DNA of 40,407 nucleotides from Candidatus Micrarchaeaceae archaeon (GCA_038877255.1 JAVYWZ010000008.1:1-40407); one strand, 5' to 3'. Shown: positions 96-37,371, counted from the stretch's first letter. The notes: generated by a model from the letters alone, not told the origin. Translations and numbers: made by a program.

Positions 96-170
96 TGCCA
101 CACTGTCAAATATAGTAGGATGTTGAATTTTTAAATACCTATTCTTCCGAATACAAATTAAATCCCTACA

Positions 171-209
171 ACAGGGGTTTACCTTCTCTCTTCGACGACA
201 AACCCCTGT
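171..209. repeat. 10-bp perfect inverted repeat upstream of the transposase
   Basis: ACAGGGGTTT (171-180) ... AAACCCCTGT (200-209). Confidence 0.7.
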
Positions 210-232
210 GTATAGTAGGGAAAAGTGATAAC

Positions 233-948
233 ATGAATATGGCGACCAGCAAAAATAAAATAGTTGAGGTTCTGGCTGCGGCCAGAATTGTGGCAAAGAG
301 TCACGGGCATACAGGAAAGTATGCCAAACACTACGTTGCACTATCAATAAAACAGTCGAATGGCGGTATCTCTGACAGAGAACTTGCAGATTTCCTTATG
401 ACAGACAAAATAGGCAGAATTTTGGGATACAAACGCAAATTCAGTTATACAATATTCTCGAAAGTAAGGAGCAAACCTGACACTGACCAGATAATGAAAG
501 AGATTTACACGATATTGATCTCTGACGTTATGCGAGGCAAACAAGTAACATTGCTTGCACAGGACAGCACCGACATATCTGCGTATTCAAAGAAAGACAA
601 AGATGCAAGATATGGACATAGAACACCTTCGAAGAAGGAGCAAATCGCGACGAAATCTACAGAAAAATCATTTGTCTTTGGGTACAAACTCCATGCTAAC
701 GCAGATGCAGAAACAGAAATGCCTCTTGCAGTAGAGGTTGCACCTGCAAACAGGCACGATAAAGTTTTCTTCCACAGGTTGTATGATCGTGTAAAAGCTC
801 TTTTCCGCATAGGTTTCGATGCAAAATTCCTTGCAGATGCTGCATACGATGCAACTGATGTATACCAAGAGTTGCACTATATGCTGTAAAGGCGGTCATC
901 GCAGCAAATGGCAGAGGTTTCTACAAATCGAAGAAGCCCAGGTTCTAG
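233..948 (+). pseudogene. IS4/IS5-superfamily (DDE_Tnp_1-like) transposase, frameshifted near 880 and 3'-truncated
   Basis: Motifs QDSTD, FGYKLH, PANRHD, ADAAYD; after LHY the sequence continues in another frame as AVKAVIAANGRGFYKSKKPR and stops before the catalytic E region. Confidence 0.85.
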
Positions 949-3114: not shown

Positions 3115-3353
3115 AGTGGCGTGCCGTAGCCTCCCTTCTGTTCTAGGCGGCATTAGACTAAGCTGCCTTTTTGGCATTGCATGCTCATAGCACGCGCATC
3201 GGCACGTTTCAAGCATACCACAGCGCTCGTATTGTCATTGCATATGCCGTGAAATGCTTCGTTTCTGTTCCGAATTAGGCTGTTAGGCCATGCATGCTCT
3301 GCATGGGGAGAGCTTCCACAGTCACAAGGACCGTAAGCCGCCCGCACGCCACT
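3115..3353 (-). ncRNA. rnpB: RNase P RNA (compact, type M-like)
   Basis: 10-bp P1 AGTGGCGTGC/GCACGCCACT; conserved regions GGAAGCTCTCCC, AACAGAAAC, TGAAACG, TGCAA, GCTTAGTCTAATG, AACAGAAGGGAGGCTA; P4 complementarity CTCCC/GGGAG; TTATAAATA box about 25 nt upstream. Confidence 0.9.
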
Positions 3354-16835: not shown

Positions 16836-16905
16836 ACAAACACTTAGTTATTGCACAAGCACACTGTAATTGAAACACCTAGTATATTTTATTACTTACT
16901 TTTAT

Positions 16906-17447
16906 ATAATGTGGCGTAAAACCCACACCCTTCAGGGGTGGGATATAAGCCACTGCAGAAATGTGCAGAAATGCATATAAATTTTGAGATGCATAAGGCC
17001 ATAACCATGATCGTCATGAAAACTGCATATAAATACCGTGCATATCCTTCAAAGGAGCAAAAGGCAAAATTAGATAGTCAAATGTTCCTCGCAAAAAATC
17101 TCTACAATCTTCTTCTTGAAAAATCGAAAGCGTATTACAAAGAAACAGGGAAGACGCTCACTAAATGCGGAAACGTGCAGGAAATGACCCTGAATAAAAG
17201 AACATTCATATGCGAGAAATGCGGAAATAAGGAAGACAGGGACATAAATGCATCAATGAACATACTTGAGCGAGGAATACTCGCAAGAGCTACCGAAGGA
17301 CATTCGGGAAGTCAAGCCTGTGGAGACGATGTAAGACCTTCCGCAAGGGAGGCAGTTGCCGACGAAGCAGGAACTATACGGGTGGCATCATGACAGCAAA
17401 TAAAGCCACCCTGGAAGCCCACGAATTCATTCGTGGGAGGATGTCAC
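16906..17447 (+). mobile_element. Non-autonomous IS200/IS605 (IS1341-like) element with internally deleted tnpB and intact ends
   Basis: Left-end hairpin GTGGC..CCCACACCCTTCAGGGGTGGG..GCCAC (16911-16953); right-end hairpin CCCACGAAT/ATTCGTGGG ending GGATGTCAC; candidate TAM TTTAT at 16901-16905 (left boundary inferred). Confidence 0.85.
17007..17393 (+). pseudogene. tnpB: tnpB deletion derivative (N-terminal HTH fused in frame to Zn-ribbon/RuvC-III)
   Basis: KTAYKYRAYPSKEQ...LYN..L joined near 17163 to KCG...RTFICEKCG..EDRDINASMNI; RuvC-I/II absent. Confidence 0.9.
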
Positions 17448-17471
17448 AAATTATTGCGAGCACGTTGCAAG
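17290..17471 (+). ncRNA. Putative omegaRNA (reRNA) scaffold plus flank-derived guide
   Basis: ACCGAAGGACATTCGGGAAGTCAAGCCTGTGGAGA and right-end hairpin are typical of tnpB 3' ends; 5' boundary approximate. Confidence 0.55.
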
Positions 17472-17557
17472 GCAGGGGTGGCAGAGTTTGGCCAAATGCG
17501 GCGGGCTTAGGCCCCGTTCCCTTAGCGGGTGCGTGAGTTCAAATCTCACCCCCTGCA
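17472..17557 (+). tRNA. tRNA-Leu(TAG), no intron, CCA not encoded
   Basis: Acceptor GCAGGGG/CCCCTGC, anticodon stem GCGGG/CCCGT with CT-TAG-GC loop, long variable arm, GTGAG-TTCAAAT-CTCAC, discriminator A. Confidence 0.95.
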
Positions 17558-17640
17558 CTTATTAGGCACTAATGCCTCTAAGCCCACCTGCTGCGCAGTA
17601 TAGCGATACGAACCCGTAGGCCCATGATTCTGCATTCTGA

Positions 17641-32392: not shown

Positions 32393-32834
32393 GTGACTAA
32401 ATTAGTATATCAATTGAGCCGAAACGAAGATGATGGCGGATATTTCCTCTCAGCAGAATGGGCTCAAGCCAATATGGGCAAATTAAAAGCCCCTGAATTG
32501 GTTTTAGGAGAATTCAGAGACATTGATATATAACGAGCTTATCATAAACGGAGGTCCTGAAATCAAAATCCAGGGAGTTGTTTATAAATCCGAAAAGTTA
32601 AAAGGAGCGGCAGAAAAGGTAGCGAAGTGCGCAGAAGAAATGTTAGGCCAAAAAATACCCATCGTATATATAAAAGAATCAGGGAACGAAGATAAAAAAC
32701 AGTCAGATGATGATGAGCAGACAAAATCATTGCGAGCCACAGTTAAGCGATTACAGAGGGATAGTGCTATAATGCAAAGTCATTATGAATTTAGAGAATG
32801 GCCACCTTCTAAACTCCATTATCCTTTATCCTAG
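32393..32834 (+). pseudogene. Hypothetical gene apparently split by a frameshift in an (AT)n run
   Basis: Two adjoining ORFs overlap at GATATATAAC (32525-32534): ...EFRDID then IYNELIING... Confidence 0.4.
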
Positions 32835-33801
32835 TGGCTCTATACACCTCGTAGAGCCCTAAGGCCTGTGGATCAATGTTTACAAGTTCTATATCGTTAT
32901 TGCCAAGCTTCCTTTCTCCTCTCATGAAATCATTCATGTACAATCCATGCATTGCACCAACGACGATCAAAAGCGTACTTTTTTCATCAATGTGATCAAG
33001 TATGTTATTGACATTGTCTTTCATTATTTTGTTTCTTATACCATCGGCTTCTTGAGGTGGTAGATTTGCGAGATTCACGGTATCAGGCATGTCTATCGGC
33101 TCTACTGTTACTCGCTTGCCGTACTGCTCCTCTAAGCCGGTTAATACGCGCAACATGCCTAAATACCACTCTGGAAACGGTGATTTGCTTGCAAGGAATC
33201 TGTAATCAAATTTATATAAATTATTAAAGAGTTCTCTGGTATCGCTATCTGAATAGCCTTCAAATGCAATAATCACCGAATGCCCTGTACTTTCTATTAT
33301 TTTCCTGGCAATCTTCTCAACCTTTTCAGGTTCTGAGGCGTCCGAATGGCGCGATAAAAACATTATTACTCTCTTGTACACATCTACATTAGAAACGTCT
33401 ATATTCGACAAATCTGTATTTTGGGTTACTTTCTTTGCATTTATATTTTCTTTACCAGCCTCTTTCTCTATATTTTTTCTGCCCTCATCGTATAACAAAA
33501 ATAGATCAGACCCTTGCGAATAGTTAGACCAATTTTTATCTAGAAAATTCTTTACTTTTTCTATATACTTTTGATCAAAAACAAATATACCACAAAAACT
33601 TTCTGCTGTAGCTGGCTTATTAGAAATGGCAATAATTTGTTTGTTGTCATTAAAGAACCTAAAGTATTTGTTTTCAGGATCATACACATATTCCATACCT
33701 AAATCCTCAGATAGTTTTTGGGAAATTGTTAATCTATCCTGCGATTCGGCTTTGTTTTCTTCCCAAGGCTCAGGTTTTTTAACTTTTTGCTTTTCGCTCA
33801 T
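32809..33801 (-). CDS. EreA/ChaN/TIKI-superfamily protein (putative metallopeptidase/hydrolase)
   Basis: Ordered motifs SRHSD..E, IAFEG, PID, RNKIM, LIVVGAMH; GGTGA RBS. Confidence 0.65.
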   Translation of the reverse strand: MSEKQKVKKPEPWEENKAESQDRLTISQKLSEDLGMEYVYDPENKYFRFFNDNKQIIAISNKPATAESFCGIFVFDQKYIEKVKNFLDKNWSNYSQGSDLFLLYDEGRKNIEKEAGKENINAKKVTQNTDLSNIDVSNVDVYKRVIMFLSRHSDASEPEKVEKIARKIIESTGHSVIIAFEGYSDSDTRELFNNLYKFDYRFLASKSPFPEWYLGMLRVLTGLEEQYGKRVTVEPIDMPDTVNLANLPPQEADGIRNKIMKDNVNNILDHIDEKSTLLIVVGAMHGLYMNDFMRGERKLGNNDIELVNIDPQALGLYEVYRATRIKDNGV

Positions 33802-33962
33802 ATTATCACCTTCGTAAATGTTTATGTTTTTGCTGATATTTAAATATTCTCAAAATTAAAATTTGTTAAATAAAGTTAACAATTTTGCAAACTGCTGTTT
33901 TGCATGACGACGAAAAATAGAAAGGTAGTCTTGAAACCTTATGCGACCCGCAATTACGATTC

Positions 33963-34070
33963 TGAGGTGATCTATCCGCAGGTTTCCCTACCGATACCTT
34001 GTTATGACTTAGGCCCCCTCATAGGACTCTAATTCAAAAACATCTTATGATGACTATAAAATACTTCACA
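33963..34070 (-). pseudogene. Degenerate fragment of the 16S rRNA 3' end (h44 tip to h45)
   Basis: Minus strand GAGGGGGCCTAAGTCATAACAAGGTATCGGTAGGGAAACCTGCGGATAGATCACCTC versus universal AAGTCGTAACAAGGTA.CCGTAGGGGAACCTGCGG.TGGATCACCTC; upstream hairpin TATTTTAT-N7-ATAAGATG fits the h44 tip. Confidence 0.85.
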
Positions 34071-34160
34071 CCTATATCTACGTATTAGAATGTTGACTTT
34101 TCTATTATAACATATCGCTACTTTTTATCATTTACCAATTACATTACTTCCACAATTTTC

Positions 34161-34530
34161 TCACGCATATCGCATCCAATACGCAATGAGGCATGCGAAC
34201 ACATACACAGCGACTTTCTTTATGCCGATAAATCGATTCTTCGCAATACCGAATAGTTCTTTCAGCCTCGAAAAATGCGCTCCACGGCCCACCTCTTGCC
34301 ATAGTTTGGATCTTTCGGCTCTATTGTCTTGAGATATTTATTTCCACTTCTTGAGATAACGGGCGTTATGCCGTCATATCACAGTTGTTTATATATCTTT
34401 GATGAATGGTATTGCGCATCTGCGAGAAACTTCGCACCATACTGCAGCACAAGCCATTCTTCACTTTGTTGTAAAATGGCGTGAACATCTTCTTGTCGTT
34501 AGTGTTTGCAGGGATCAACTCTGCAGCAAT
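34161..34530 (-). pseudogene. C-terminal remnant of an IS4/IS5-superfamily transposase
   Basis: AAELIPANTNDKKMF..., AKFLADAQY, internal TGA and frameshift, YGKRWAVERIFSRLKE; homologous to 233-948. Confidence 0.85.
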
Positions 34531-34634
34531 TGATGCGCTTAGTCAATTTACAAAATCTCAAATATCTTTAAACAAATTTCGATTTTTAGAAACACTTAAA
34601 TATCAGATATGGCGTTATTTCTTACGATGATGAA

Positions 34635-35144
34635 ATGAGCGAAAAGATGACAAATGGAGGGGTAAATGAAGACTCATCCGCCATAAAGAAGTTAGCCAGA
34701 AACAGTGACGAACGTTTGGAAGAGCAAATAGCCTCAGCTAAAAAAGAGCTTATAGACTGGTTTTCTAATAACGTGGATGCTTTTAACCTTTTTAGAACTA
34801 GTGTAGAAGAATGGGTAAAAGATTATATAGAAAGACGAAAGAGAGCTTATAAGGAAGAGGAATACAAGTATAAAATCTTCAAATTCTATGGAATTGAAAC
34901 CAAGCCTCCTGAAAATCAAACGGAAACGTCAGAAGATATGGTAAGAAACGCACTTCCTGATCACATTGTTTTATGGCTCTCTACTGACTACGACAGTAGT
35001 AAGGCGCCATTCATTCGTAACCTTGAGGACTTTGAGGCTAAATATGATAAACACATTATAAATGAGGCGCTTGTAGAAATAGCCCTTGAAATGGCCAAAG
35101 AAACAGGCTTAATCCAAAAAATACTCTACGGTGGTCTCACTTAA
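34635..35144 (+). CDS. Hypothetical acidic helical protein
   Basis: 169-aa ORF with TATA box and RBS-like leader; begins MSEK like 33801. Confidence 0.75.
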   Translation: MSEKMTNGGVNEDSSAIKKLARNSDERLEEQIASAKKELIDWFSNNVDAFNLFRTSVEEWVKDYIERRKRAYKEEEYKYKIFKFYGIETKPPENQTETSEDMVRNALPDHIVLWLSTDYDSSKAPFIRNLEDFEAKYDKHIINEALVEIALEMAKETGLIQKILYGGLT

Positions 35145-35229
35145 AGAAATGGCCTTTGATATGGCCCTTGAGATTATCCAAGGCCCCCTACAAATAATGC
35201 ACTTAAAGAAATAGCCGTTATGGCCTTTT
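35067..35229 (+). repeat. Three degenerate ~30-bp direct repeats spanning the end of the 34635 gene
   Basis: GCTTGTAGAAATAGCCCTTGAAATGGCC / CACTTAAAGAAATGGCCTTTGATATGGCC / CACTTAAAGAAATAGCCGTTATGGCC. Confidence 0.7.
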
Positions 35230-35551
35230 GAAGTTGCCATGTCTGAGGAAGCAAAAGAAGTGAATGACTAAGAACTGCGGAAGTATAATTACTATGTCTG
35301 AAGCTTAACCAGTAACTAATGATGCAGAGCTTATTAGCATGCATGTCATGTTGATAGTAGTACTGACTGCTTTCCAGCGTTAAATGCGGTGGCAAGGCTA
35401 ATTGAAGAAAAAAGAAGAGATTATTAGAATTTCTAGAAAACTGTTGGAATAAACTCTTGCTAGTAGCTTTACAAATTAGCGAGTACTAGCTCACATTTTG
35501 CAAGAAAAAAGTGTATTTAAATATCAGAAAAGACATATAAAATTTGATTAT

Positions 35552-36088
35552 ATGGAGGAGCATGTTATTCCTGGAGGTGCACGCTTGCTTATTGGTGACT
35601 ATGTTTACACTACTATAGAATCTGCAAGTCCTGTAGGGTATGGCCTTATCCTTCCATCGCCAAATAGTCCTTTATTTAGAGAATATTACAAAAAGGCAAC
35701 CGATTATGCTGGGTTGTCAACCGGCTTAGACCGTGTAGCACGGCTTTTAGGATTCGTACATGACAGCATAATGTACGACGAAAACTTCGGTAATGGAATG
35801 AAATATGTACCGCTTTACATGGCACTAAGGGACGGGAAAGGTGTTTGCAAGGAAAAGGCGGCGTTGCTTTACATGATTCTGACCTTGGAAGGCTTCGATG
35901 CCAAATATGTAAAAGGCACGCTTACTGATAGAGATGGAGCAGGAGGGCATGCATGGGTCAAGATTCGCATTGGAAAAGATGAGTATCTGGCGGATCCGAC
36001 AAACAAAAAGCTGTTTAGATATGAACTTGCACAAGAACAAGGTTATAAAGAAACATCAGTTAATTTTACCGTAAGACGCCTCAAATAA
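35552..36088 (+). CDS. Transglutaminase-like cysteine protease
   Basis: GVCKEKA, GHAW, ADPT (Cys-His-Asp triad); start moved to MEEH. Confidence 0.88.
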   Translation: MEEHVIPGGARLLIGDYVYTTIESASPVGYGLILPSPNSPLFREYYKKATDYAGLSTGLDRVARLLGFVHDSIMYDENFGNGMKYVPLYMALRDGKGVCKEKAALLYMILTLEGFDAKYVKGTLTDRDGAGGHAWVKIRIGKDEYLADPTNKKLFRYELAQEQGYKETSVNFTVRRLK

Positions 36089-36195
36089 GAATAGTTTCAA
36101 ATAATTGATATACGCTATTGTATTATCTTGTTTTCCTGAAATTTCACAATATTGAAACAAAAAGTGTTTTTGTTTAAAGCATCTTTTTCGAGTTT

Positions 36196-36348
36196 ATGGA
36201 AAACAGGCCTTATGGGTTAAGCAAGCATTATAAAGCGCCAAAAGACTTTCAAGAAACCTTCTCTTACTCGAGAGGCATATTTTATATTAATAATATGGAA
36301 TATGACATTGCATTTTTCAATTTACTGAAATTTTTCAGAGCGTACTAG
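36196..36348 (+). CDS. Possible 50-aa small protein
   Basis: MENRPYGLSKHYKAPKDFQETFSYSRGIFYINNMEYDIAFFNLLKFFRAY; preceded by perfect IR AAACAAAAA-GTG-TTTTTGTTT (36155-36175). Confidence 0.25.
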   Translation: MENRPYGLSKHYKAPKDFQETFSYSRGIFYINNMEYDIAFFNLLKFFRAY

Positions 36349-36578
36349 TTTTAGCCGTATGTAACGCGGTTTTCTGGCCTCCGACGATAAAACTATGCGT
36401 TTATTTGAGCTACGCTGCATGCTTTCATGCTGATGCAAGTAAATACGTGCGTAACAAGATCGCTTAATCTAGGGCAAATTCCAGCAATACTAAAATTAGA
36501 TTAGACATTCTAATATAGTTTTGTAATTAGTTGTCATATGACTTTTGCCACCTGGCATTTGCACTTTCTGCAAATTAT

Positions 36579-37298
36579 TTAGCGCTTAATTGATGACAAG
36601 TCTTTTATTCTGCTTAACTGCTCGTTTAGAAGATAGAAAACAGCGTCGCCAAGGCTTTCAAATTTTCCGTTACTGTAAAATTCAAGAATCTTTTCTGCTG
36701 CCTCGCGAGTTTCTTTAGGATGAGGTCCAATATATGTTCCTGTGAGATCTTCTAGCAACTGTCTTGTTTCTTTAAGAAGATCTATTAAATCACGCAGCCA
36801 ACTACTTATTTCTTCGGGGGTTTGCCCGTCTTTCATGCTACCATTGAGTTCTTTAATAGCCGCCTTAAGCTTTTCAACTACTTCACTTTTGCTAAATTCT
36901 TTACCTTCGCTCTTGGTTAAATATAATATTTCAAACAAAAAGCTAGCGCCTTCTGGGAAAAACGCCAGTGATTTATCATTAATGGTCAGTTTTCCTGGTC
37001 CTTTAACAGCATTTATATAATCTTGAAATATCTTGTGCAACAGTTCGTGAACGAGAAGAGACTGAATTTTGTTAGCATAGCTTTCATCAATGTAAATGTC
37101 CTTATCATAAGGCAGTCTTATAGAGTCGCTATGTGGGTTATAATGGAAATATTCAGTAGTCTCTGAAAAATAAAATTTTATGTCGCTTTTATCAGTATAT
37201 TTTATCAGTTCTACAGGAAGCGACTTACTCAAAAAATCATACGCTATGTTAAGATAATCGCCTACTCGTTCTTCTATTACCTCTTTCTCTCTTTGCAT
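36579..37298 (-). CDS. Putative zincin (HEXXH) metallopeptidase, orphan
   Basis: FHYNP....I.LP, LVHELLH, downstream PEGAS. Confidence 0.7.
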   Translation of the reverse strand: MQREKEVIEERVGDYLNIAYDFLSKSLPVELIKYTDKSDIKFYFSETTEYFHYNPHSDSIRLPYDKDIYIDESYANKIQSLLVHELLHKIFQDYINAVKGPGKLTINDKSLAFFPEGASFLFEILYLTKSEGKEFSKSEVVEKLKAAIKELNGSMKDGQTPEEISSWLRDLIDLLKETRQLLEDLTGTYIGPHPKETREAAEKILEFYSNGKFESLGDAVFYLLNEQLSRIKDLSSIKR

Positions 37299-37371
37299 AT
37301 AAATAATTATGTCTTACCCGATATAAAAACATTGGCATTGCCAATATGCAACCAGAGTGTGGAACCAACTT

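Follow-up and report, generated by a model that had tools for sequence, protein, structure and literature searches.

Predicted promoter blocks related to a 16S rRNA flank precede unrelated genes in the very small genome of an archaeon

The stretch of DNA analysed here, referred to as the window, is 40,407 nt long and comes from a Candidatus Micrarchaeaceae archaeon (GCA_038877255.1, JAVYWZ010000008.1:1-40407). The archaeal genome is very small (713,429 bp, in a 30-contig assembly) and includes 194 repeat regions totalling 41 kb. Four ORFs (A to D) were examined (Table 1); the island in which the orphan genes lie has a GC content of 35-39%, compared with 44% for the genome. The original prediction held that their upstream DNA was a single homologous promoter and leader cassette; the four ORFs exist and the strings quoted in its support are all present where it placed them.

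Table 1. Features of the A-D region (window positions)
Feature	Coordinates	Strand	Description	Basis
ORF A	32809..33801	-	330 aa; orphan; starts MSEK; ChaN/TIKI/EreA-like C-terminal domain, ~residues 118-329	ORF call, structure comparison
A leader	33802..33836	-	TATA box to ATG	sequence
TATA box, A copy	33837..33844	-	TTTAAATA	sequence, alignment
A-type block, upstream part	33845..33909	-	TTTGCAAAAT at 33882-33891	alignment, nhmmer, model R1 93.2 bits
16S rRNA 3' trailer remnant	33910..33963	-	..GCATAAGGTTTCAAGACTAC, then oligo-T run	like trailer after real 16S of G006
16S rRNA 3'-end pseudo-fragment	33964..34052	-	~89 nt, terminating in GATCACCTC	alignments
Divergent promoter remnant	34053..34085	+	TATAAAAT at 34055-34062; of small membrane-protein gene (MPNPRKKYEKDFYY...)	alignments
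Decayed transposase gene	34086..34542	-	DDE, IS4/IS5-like; three frames; dispersed repeat at 34086-34297	stop-to-stop frames
B/C4-type block	34528..34606	+	TTTACAAAAT at 34547-34556; TATA-like CTTAAATA at 34595-34602	BLASTN, R1 95.7 bits
B leader	34607..34634	+	resembles leader of B-like gene in G035:C5	alignments
ORF B	34635..35144	+	169 aa; orphan; predicted helical; starts MSEK	ORF call
C promoter	35468..35551	+	weak, possibly distant member; TTTACAAATT at 35468-35477; TATA at 35516-35523	R1 14.8 bits
ORF C	35552..36088	+	178 aa; transglutaminase-like core	PF01841
ORF D	36579..37330	-	239 aa; HELLH; own promoter TTTTATAT at 37321-37328; judged non-member	

The predicted nature of the cargo is borne out at the level of fold: A is TIKI/ChaN/EreA-like, C has a transglutaminase core and D carries HELLH. 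ORF A matches no Pfam or NCBIfam family, and a search of 1.84e9 representatives returned five proteins at E<=0.001, A itself included. Its structural model (four sequences; mean pLDDT 66.9, residues 140-320 mostly 80-95) has the fold of the TIKI/ChaN/EreA/TraB-like superfamily. The closest VIA-align match was ChaN (2g5g; Z 10.9, rmsd 4.0, 174 aligned), followed by 6a7h, 2ebh, 2ebf, 6a8j and 5t09 (Z 10.0-10.3) and 5w6l (8.8), while the next unrelated group of structures reached Z<=7.7. The Foldseek E-value was only 1.0e-3, and Atlas neighbours were clusters of ChaN, Tiki, TraB and EreA (TM 0.54-0.63). Residues H152, E157, R256, N263, G282 and H285 are invariant in the four sequences and may correspond to the His/Glu/Arg active-site motifs of the superfamily. 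ORF B was found in one of 121 genomes of the order, its own, and shows weak but collinear similarity to the ORF that follows the block in G035:C5 (E 7e-4 and 0.002). ORF C scores above the gathering cutoff of PF01841 (E 2.4e-10, 41.1 bits against 23), with candidate catalytic Cys, His and Asp residues, read by eye, in GVCKEKA, GGHAWV and LADP, and has homologs in 17 of the 121 genomes.

Several of the strings common to the leaders recur in the genome. AAGACATA, common to the C and D leaders, is present 56 times. The 83 sites for TTAAATAT are followed by C in 20 cases and by CAG in six; since this continuation is rare and one repeat family supplies four of the six, the extension past TTAAATAT is not a general promoter feature. 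For TTAAATATCAG, six occurrences were counted on both strands of the genome, against ~0.7-1.1 expected by an estimate from base composition. Three fall within a 1.7-kb stretch of the window (33833-, 34596+ and 35517+) and three elsewhere (C4:13249-, C5:25065+ and C17:1088+).

Upstream of the TATA box, A and B have in common a block of ~75 nt, to which are added part of the leader, ATGAGCGAAAAG and the first 12 coding nucleotides, so that similarity does extend past the TATA core, as had been claimed. Two further copies, here called C4 and C17, lie elsewhere in the genome. BLASTN gives 94.9% identity over 294 nt between A and C17, 87% over 79 nt between B and C4 (C4:13249-13327) and 84% over 50 nt between A and C4, whereas the A/B pair alone is only ~65% alike. 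As a single-sequence nhmmer query against the whole genome, A retrieves C17 at 4.3e-25, its best other match being B (0.0083), and B retrieves C4 at 3.5e-9 and A at 0.41. A profile built from the four copies returns just these four from the whole genome (E<=4e-16, next match E 1.5), as it must by construction. The B block is also 94% identical to G035:C13 over 51 nt, and further copies, the existence of which the original prediction left to be checked, are present in another genus. Of the coding sequence, only the first 10-12 nt are covered by the homology (10 nt for A/C17), and the B protein and the C4 ORF are not alike (BLASTP E 7.3). In C17, ATA replaces the expected ATG and the frame stays open into a different ORF, giving an in-frame fusion. 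In a census of upstream families preceding non-paralogous genes, which yielded 17 families and 47 of 785 crude ORFs, the A/C17 pair was recovered.

Among the four leaders, true homology is confined to A and B, and part of their likeness could reflect common function (upstream element plus TATA box) rather than descent. The C promoter carries the common 14-mer TATTTAAATATCAG and is the third-best match of the family model (R1) in the window, collinear over model positions 20-109, with E 0.0011; of 11 loci harbouring a C homolog, one has a model match (18.7 bits) just upstream. The D promoter was rejected as a member, its score of 7.8 bits (E 0.17) not being significant. Used as single nhmmer queries against the whole genome, neither C nor D gave a match below E 5. 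An ortholog of D in G005, of the same genus, has HELTH and its own similar promoter. The near match ahead of dtxR, cited by the prediction when it named frequent occurrence before housekeeping genes as its own refutation, scores 2.7 bits (E 6.6). Related upstream DNA is therefore upheld for A and B, weak for C and absent for D, and reuse of a promoter with its first codons before non-homologous ORFs holds for A, B, C4 and, in frame, C17.

A decayed transposase gene sits between the A and B blocks, abutting both, and truncates the upstream end of the B block. Its match to DDE_Tnp_1 is weak (E 0.11, last 34 profile positions); the region is 85% identical to G006:C4, and copies of its dispersed repeat are found on C1, C2, C3, C4, C6 and C28. 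The join between the A and B sides crosses this multi-copy repeat and could be a mis-assembly. Artefacts of assembly or binning in a repeat-rich, 30-contig genome, or chance likeness of ordinary TATA promoters, might in principle account for the resemblances: TTTAAATA corresponds to the common consensus for TATA boxes in archaea, and the likeness of D (E 0.17) is at that level. However, the copies differ by 5-13% and therefore are not one sequence assembled twice. The E-values of A/C17, of B/C4 and of matches in other genomes also argue against this explanation, as does the part of C17 past its first 1.6 kb, which is as far from g2 as is normal between genera. Contigs of run X1 that are almost identical to the window extend over the left flank and the D side; their depth is 2-4x, as in the flanks, and that of the B bin is just as low. 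For A and B, chance or artefact is already largely refuted, and as a general explanation it is barely credible.

The DNA beyond the A block derives from the 3' end of a 16S rRNA locus. A 143-nt segment, made up of a 16S fragment and a complete trailer, aligns end-to-end (93%) with one of 30 16S loci, that of G006, which belongs to another genus. The fragment matches the real 16S of G006 at 79 of 86 positions and that of its own genome at 69 of 86 (90% identity over only 72 nt), and the trailer is identical to that of G006 at 56 of 59 positions, compared with 22 of 78 for the genome's own. The motif CTCAAGACTAC follows 16S in most loci of the family. Next to the fragment is what remains of the promoter of a small membrane-protein gene which is intact beside the C17 copy but cut off at the A locus; this remnant is 97% identical to two sites in G035:C5. 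In G006 and G018, from related genera, the order is real 16S, trailer, block (68.7 and 39.1 bits, respectively), small membrane-protein ORF and tuf/EF-1alpha. A strong block follows the 16S 3' end in only two of 29 family loci, with two weak ones in addition. The flank of 16S may be the native place of the block, as suggested by two genera, and the direction of transfer is presumptive.

The partial 16S ends could alternatively be the footprint of a site-specific integrative element targeting the 16S 3' end, the fragment being a displaced att half and the island its cargo. Partial 16S 3' ends with nearly the same left boundary at A, C17 and G035:C5 fit such a history, as do the low GC of the island and the arrangement in G035:C5, where 84-nt direct repeats, 95% identical to each other, flank the fragment, block and gene. 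These repeats, however, correspond to the 5' end and promoter of the small membrane-protein gene and are not att-like; C8/C17 homology ends 2 nt ahead of the start codon of this gene. Moreover, the real 16S carries a family-typical trailer, and if C8 and C9 are joined through their 354-nt overlap, the fragment is inverted with respect to the real 16S, ~18.6 kb away. No integrase or recombinase domain was detected in the island ORFs scanned in this fragmented assembly. We consider an integrative element improbable.

Within the block is a bipartite element, CAAAAT-N-ACAAA followed ~32 nt later by TATA. The exact pattern CAAAATNACAAA-N{30,42}-TTWAWATA occurs 31 times, spread over 27 of 201 genomes of the order, and in 29 of the 31 occurrences the matched spacer length is 31-33 nt. 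The backward control gave one match, and a spacer of 70-82 gave one forward and two backward. A TATA box set at constant spacing from a conserved element upstream is thus commoner than in controls, as expected of an archaeal TBP/TFB core promoter. Seven of 30 loci examined, in seven genomes and five genera, precede one Lys-rich protein family. Within the genome studied here, only C4 matches exactly; B is off by one mismatch in each part, A departs at ~3 positions (by eye), and a relaxed scan of the genome revealed no enrichment at the right spacing (13 matches, against 2-10 at other spacings).

It may be asked whether the A, B and C promoters are alike simply because, in a regulon without recent duplication, each has been maintained by selection for a common activator site plus TATA box. 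Conservation of the fixed-spacing element across the order, ahead of orthologous Lys-rich protein genes, speaks for this possibility, and so does the single upstream match among the C-homolog loci. The columns conserved among 23 distant model matches coincide with CAAAAT.ACAAA, AA.AAATT and the TATA box, in an alignment fitted to the model. Nevertheless, selection on a binding site leaves unexplained the 95% identity of A and C17 over 294 nt including a pseudo-16S, as well as the B/C4 identity and the common leader and first 12 coding nucleotides. Such selection is an unlikely explanation on its own, although it can act together with copying.

The original prediction favoured a dedicated effector system, in which a promoter and N-terminal cassette would serve shuffled catalytic domains acting on the host of a symbiont. 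The cargo is enzyme-like and lacks an obvious hydrophobic N-terminus (by eye), A and B are orphans, and the nearest solved folds to A include, beside ChaN, domains from bacterial effectors and toxins that share its superfold (HopBA1, RRSP and PMT). Polymorphic toxins and effectors have common N-terminal domains of tens of residues or more, joined to variable C-terminal ones, whereas only the four residues MSEK are common here, far too few for a trafficking or targeting domain. C is marginal and D a non-member. PADLOC and PHROGs, covering defence and phage families, gave no match for A, B or D, and neither an immunity-like partner nor a secretion link was found among the neighbours scanned, small uncharacterised ORFs remaining among them. 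Nor is the setting specific to effectors: where it can be traced, the module adjoins 16S, with a small ORF and EF-1alpha after it, and a related promoter class precedes the Lys-rich protein. The polymorphic-effector design finds no support in these observations and is very improbable.

The homologies among the copies, the 143-nt 16S-derived piece and the 16S/tuf order in G006 and G018 instead make it fairly probable that the promoter module before A and B, and perhaps C, is of housekeeping type and was copied ectopically from the 16S rRNA flank. The module would comprise an upstream element, TTTRCAAAAT followed by ACAAA-like bases, and a second conserved stretch, TTAAACAAATTT; ~32 nt downstream of the former comes the TATA box TTTAAATA, and then a short leader, the start codon and two or three further codons. 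Copies of segments of the 16S-adjacent locus would have reached no fewer than four sites (A, B, C4 and C17), recombined with one another, and become fused in frame, shortly after the start of the coding sequence, with unrelated ORFs; this recombination route is conjectural. The orphan genes may have captured the module within an AT-rich island scarred by the transposase remnant. The copies were probably imported, most likely from a lineage resembling genus g2: a 229-nt C4 unit compared by BLASTN with 118 family genomes matches only G000 and both g2 genomes (none of five same-genus genomes), C17:3-474 is 92% identical to G006 whereas the remainder of C17 is at 68-71%, and the island is low in GC.

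TBP and TFB would bind the TATA box and a putative factor the upstream element, and A and B (perhaps C) would be expressed from the captured promoter, whose activity and strength are predictions. Transcripts may start ~10-15 nt before the ATG. For A, a start ~24 nt below the TATA box is suggested by the usual archaeal TATA-to-start spacing, and the A leader includes GGTGAT (33805-33810), complementary to the 16S 3' end.

Dispersed repeats can supply promoters in several ways. Correia elements, REPINs and IS-mediated capture are listed as suppliers of outward promoters by Nijveen, Matus-Garcia & van Passel (2012, PMC3575422). The present case resembles promoters carried by IS and miniature transposons in that the genome is rich in short dispersed repeats and an IS remnant abuts both blocks; this remnant, however, lies beside the repeated unit and outside it. 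There are four copies only, and neither the A nor the B block has terminal inverted repeats or target-site duplications of its own: within 33700-34750, the only inverted repeat is that of the A block with the B block, and none flanks a single block.

An archaeal parallel is provided by the intergenic repeats of halovirus HF2, for which Russ, Pfeiffer & Dyall-Smith (2021, PMC8707807) describe promoters demonstrated by reporter assay. These repeats are likewise AT-rich, located before different genes and conserved among related genomes, but they are 58 and 29 bp long, belong to a virus genome and are not rRNA-derived, whereas the blocks described here are chromosomal, longer, few and predicted as promoters.

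A further likeness is with the putative mobile promoters of PMC3575422, a survey of promoter capture in prokaryotes which used at least 80% identity over at least 50 nt upstream of non-homologous genes in one genome. Closely similar upstream DNA before non-homologous genes is found here too: A/C17 and B/C4 reach that identity, A/B does not, and the downstream genes are non-paralogous. Some mobile-promoter families span genera, no known mobile element is necessary, and rapid rewiring of expression has been proposed as their role. Their survey window (-150 to -50) left out the core promoter, whereas the unit copied in this very small archaeal genome spans the TATA box, leader and first codons, giving in-frame fusions. 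Moreover, because the pseudo-16S piece and trailer travelled along with the block, the source locus can here be named as the 16S flank.

Promoter reuse supplying orphan genes in the variable island of the window is real and traceable in the alignments. The original prediction placed one reusable promoter and N-terminal cassette before four unrelated ORFs; all four ORFs exist (listed below), and the four upstream strings quoted for them are present in the window. TTAAATATCAG occurs six times in the genome (G000), three of these inside a 1.7-kb stretch of the window; TTAAATAT, TTAAATATC and AAGACATA occur 83, 20 and 56 times, respectively. Comparison of the regions around the six TTAAATATCAG sites reveals about 60 nt above the TATA box that are common to A, B and two further copies of the cassette beyond the window, at C17:1088+ and C4:13249- (contigs C17 and C4 of the same assembly). 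BLASTN identity is 94.9% over 294 nt between A and C17, 87% over 79 nt between B and C4, and 84% over 50 nt between A and C4. An nhmmer profile of the four copies returns, by construction, the same four alone, with the next match at E 1.5. Used as single queries, A retrieves the C17 copy (4.3e-25) and then B (0.0083) as best other match in the genome, B retrieves the C4 copy (3.5e-9) and A (0.41), and the C and D promoters have no match in the genome below E 5. Scanning of the window, with filters off, by R1, a sequence-only covariance model of this promoter block, gives 95.7 bits for B, 93.2 for A, 14.8 for the C promoter (E 0.0011, collinear), 7.8 for the D promoter (E 0.17) and 2.7 for the near-match before dtxR (E 6.6). 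On the BLASTN, single-query nhmmer and R1 scores, the upstream regions of A and B share a common origin; that of C may be a distant relative, and D falls outside the family. The D ortholog of the same-genus genome G005 carries HELTH and has its own similar promoter.

Coordinates of the ORFs and of the 16S-related features
Feature	Position	Strand	Remark
ORF A	32809-33801	(-)	
ORF B	34635-35144	(+)	
ORF C	35552-36088	(+)	
ORF D	36579-37298	(-)	
16S rRNA 3'-end fragment, ~89 nt, ending GATCACCTC	33964-34052	A strand	A/C17 shared segment
16S trailer remnant	33910-33963	A strand	A/C17 shared segment
Real 16S rRNA gene of G000	C9:12577-14552		

The 294 nt common to A and C17 comprise, on the A strand, a 16S rRNA 3'-end piece, then 16S trailer, then the block. 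Compared with the real 16S of G006, a genome from the same family but a different genus, the 16S piece agrees at 79 of 86 positions, and with the gene of G000 itself at 69 of 86; for the trailer the figures are 56 of 59 and 22 of 78. Among 30 16S 3' loci (29 relatives and the own one), that of G006 alone aligns end to end (143 nt, 93%). The gene order in G006 and in G018, also of another genus, is real 16S, trailer, block, small membrane-protein ORF and EF-1alpha; strong R1 matches follow the 16S at 2 of 29 loci, these two, and weak ones at two more. No block is present at the own tuf (EF-1alpha) gene (C6:35356-), and no copy adjoins the own 5S and 23S genes. The final 354 nt of the window contig (C8) are shared, at 99%, with the beginning of C9, so that the real 16S would lie about 18.6 kb off in opposite orientation. 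That gene measures 1976 nt against a 1478-position model, which implies about 500 nt of insertions.

R1 matches occur in 22 of 61 related genomes, own included, and are strongest in genus g2. By BLASTN, the 229-nt C4 unit is found in 3 of 118 family genomes, namely G000 and both g2 genomes, and in 0 of 5 genomes of the same genus. Moreover, C17:3-474 is 92% identical to G006 versus 68-71% for the rest of C17, and the GC content is 35-39% in the island versus 44% genome-wide. These observations fit an import of g2-like DNA into G000, which probably took place from another genus before promoter reuse; the direction is inferred from these patterns.

On its left side, the A/C17 segment stops 2 nt short of the start codon of a divergently oriented gene for a small membrane protein (MPNPRKKYEKDFYY...). 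This gene is intact on C17; in the window a decayed DDE transposase gene (34086-34542) stands in its place. On the right, the segment reaches 10 nt into coding sequence. What was copied is thus an entire divergent intergenic region together with the first codons. The C17 copy has ATA at the start codon, yet its reading frame remains open and continues in phase into another ORF, the third and again unrelated. The upstream side of the B block is cut by the transposase remnant, and the complete B/C4-type unit measures about 190 nt. C4:13437-13249 shows 88% identity to locus L111 and 90% to a copy in another related genome (G035:C13) that adjoins a 5S gene. The block was considered as part of a 5S promoter and rejected, as this 5S gene has a TATA box of its own some 25 nt upstream and the unit begins at a distance of some 50 nt. 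The upstream part of B resembles C4 and G035:C13 (94% over 51 nt) and its leader that of a B-like gene in G035:C5, itself located after a 74-nt 16S fragment; since its parts resemble different sources, the block copies are, by these alignments, mosaics. Around the 16S piece and the transposase remnant, the A and B blocks are inverted repeats of each other (71-77%), and no repeats flank one single block. A second short promoter-like segment (GATTTTATATCGCAACRCACATTCGCCTTTT), the most upstream part of the ~190-nt C4-type unit, is common to G000:C19:6316-6350 and C4:13398-13432 (94%) and also occurs at G035:C13 and L111. A small CRISPR-like array (L062:1378-1553, G035:C5), in which a 36-nt repeat ending GATTGAAAC occurs three times with ~34-nt spacers, adjoins the small membrane-protein gene that has its promoter beside the block locus.

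Distant R1 matches tend to begin at a TTTGCAAAAT element and also carry, right after it, ACAAA, for which R1 itself has only a weak requirement. The exact pattern CAAAATNACAAA-N{30,42}-TTWAWATA is matched 31 times, in 27 of the 201 order genomes, with a spacer of 31-33 nt in 29 of the 31 (count of matched lengths). Controls yield one match for the backward pattern, and one forward and two backward for a spacer of 70-82. Downstream of 30 such loci are 7 members of a Lys-rich protein family (~230 aa, seven genomes, five genera), 2 of another family, 15 unrelated ORFs and 6 cases with no ORF; the own Lys-rich gene of G000 (C6:7211) has a degenerate version of the element. The unpublished genome G063 is included in the 16S-locus, bipartite-match and Lys-rich counts, which without it become 2 of 28 for the loci, 30 for the matches (26 of 200 genomes) and 6 for the Lys-rich cases; none of the conclusions depends on G063 by itself. 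As a sequence pattern, the bipartite element is real but infrequent within any one genome. It is not enriched in G000 when scanned for under relaxed settings (13 matches versus 2-10 at other spacings), and upstream CAAAAT shows no peak at G000 TATA sites beyond the family copies. At six loci (L134, L135, L137, L156 of genus g17, L146 and L155) the bipartite/TATA promoter is followed by a conserved C-rich stretch (..ATCTTCCCCACCA..) and no ORF. This stretch may be a small RNA; a search of the ORF-less loci against Rfam returned no family.

In a species-genome collection, the exact pattern has 37 matches, 6 of them in records titled Micrarchaeota or Micrarchaeaceae, two of which (L080 and L111) are also found by a 73-nt core profile at E<=1e-3; the matches outside these six are AT-rich bacteria lacking likeness past the pattern, bar the weak L100 (E 4.5e-4). 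A viral origin of the block was rejected, the three pattern matches in viral contigs having no likeness past the pattern. A metagenome scan gave three matches, one of them a real block-like promoter (L128), the single real copy added by both scans together.

The ORFs behind the promoters are diverse. ORF A has no family match; it has five relatives, itself included, among 1.84e9 representatives, is present in 2 of 121 order genomes, own included, and its family profile retrieves nothing meaningful from PDB sequences. The predicted TIKI/EreA-like nature of A holds at the level of the modelled fold: a model built from 4 sequences (pLDDT 66.9; a single-sequence model, at 44.7, was too poor) resembles ChaN with Z 10.9 and the PMT, RRSP and 6a7h toxin domains and HopBA1 with Z 8.8-10.3, the group after all of these reaching at most 7.7; Foldseek gives E 1e-3 and Atlas neighbours agree. 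ORF B is an orphan. Just past its stop, positions 35145-35260 hold a degenerate repeat of its C-terminus motif (CTTAAAGAAATGGCC / CTTAAAGAAATAGCC), which looks like a decayed tandem duplication. The transglutaminase core expected in C was found, with homologs in 17 of 121 order genomes, and the HEXXH motif of D is present as HELLH. The C-D spacer contains a 50-aa ORF (MENRPYGLSKHYKAPKDF..., 36196-36348, +), and positions 36153-36334 share 70% DNA identity with a site beside the D ortholog in G005. That ortholog lies among three consecutive HExxH-type or related proteins of 225, 250 and 334 aa (L060:11855-15236, G005:C11), which suggests a variable zincin-like cluster. PADLOC returned nothing for the cargo ORFs, PHROGs gave two weak matches, both to C, and A, B and D match no family of defence or phage proteins. 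The evidence does not bear out the dedicated effector system that had been proposed.

The assembly (713,429 bp, 30 contigs, 92% complete) is rich in repeats, with 194 dispersed regions totalling 41 kb in a 0.71-Mb genome (e.g. window 111-345 and 16902-17557). Members of one repeat family, ending GTAGTTCA, precede at least 8 unrelated genes at a distance of 20-90 nt. A census with criteria modelled on a published survey finds 17 families of upstream DNA common to non-related proteins (47 of 785 crude ORFs), the largest being a miniature-transposon-like repeat. Depth in the sequencing run X1, which sums over organisms, is about 2-4x for the flanks, B and D, 17-40x for A through variants 92-97% alike, 60-150x for the C region and 700-2100x for the blocks and transposase remnant; A-like and C-like DNA is carried by relatives and the repeats are common. 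The comparison covered three DNA runs and set aside two joints that had short sides or unknown inserts; a look for RNA runs containing the island returned none. The window also encodes an archaeal RNase P RNA (3115-3353, -, 95.7 bits) and a tRNA-Leu (17472-17558, +).

It is conceivable, if rather unlikely, that conserved intergenic promoter modules act as recombination anchors in Micrarchaeota-like archaea, in a scheme of promoter-anchored gene-cassette exchange in an ultra-small symbiont genome. The module would arise beside the 16S rRNA gene and spread from genus to genus; through homologous exchange at its copies, newly acquired orphan genes would come to lie in frame after a ready-made strong promoter with its leader and start codon; and a putative order-wide factor would bind CAAAAT-N-ACAAA exactly 32 nt above the TATA and control the whole set.

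The captured promoters are putative, as are their activity, strength and co-regulation. The case shows a way in which the orphan genes of a strongly reduced archaeal genome may gain their expression signals at once, by receiving an entire promoter, leader and start codon copied from a housekeeping locus. CAAAAT-N-ACAAA, 32 nt above the TATA box, is a cis-element that can be put to the test in this uncultivated group of archaea and could help to predict its highly expressed or co-regulated genes.

A literature search on promoters in DPANN or Micrarchaeota found nothing relevant; published work may still exist. These promoter copies do not reveal a new kind of system. Naming of the source by a co-travelling pseudo-16S piece is unusual among cases of promoter reuse; the same phenomenon is already known as putative mobile promoters (PMC3575422), and intergenic repeats of an archaeal virus have been shown to bear promoters (PMC8707807).
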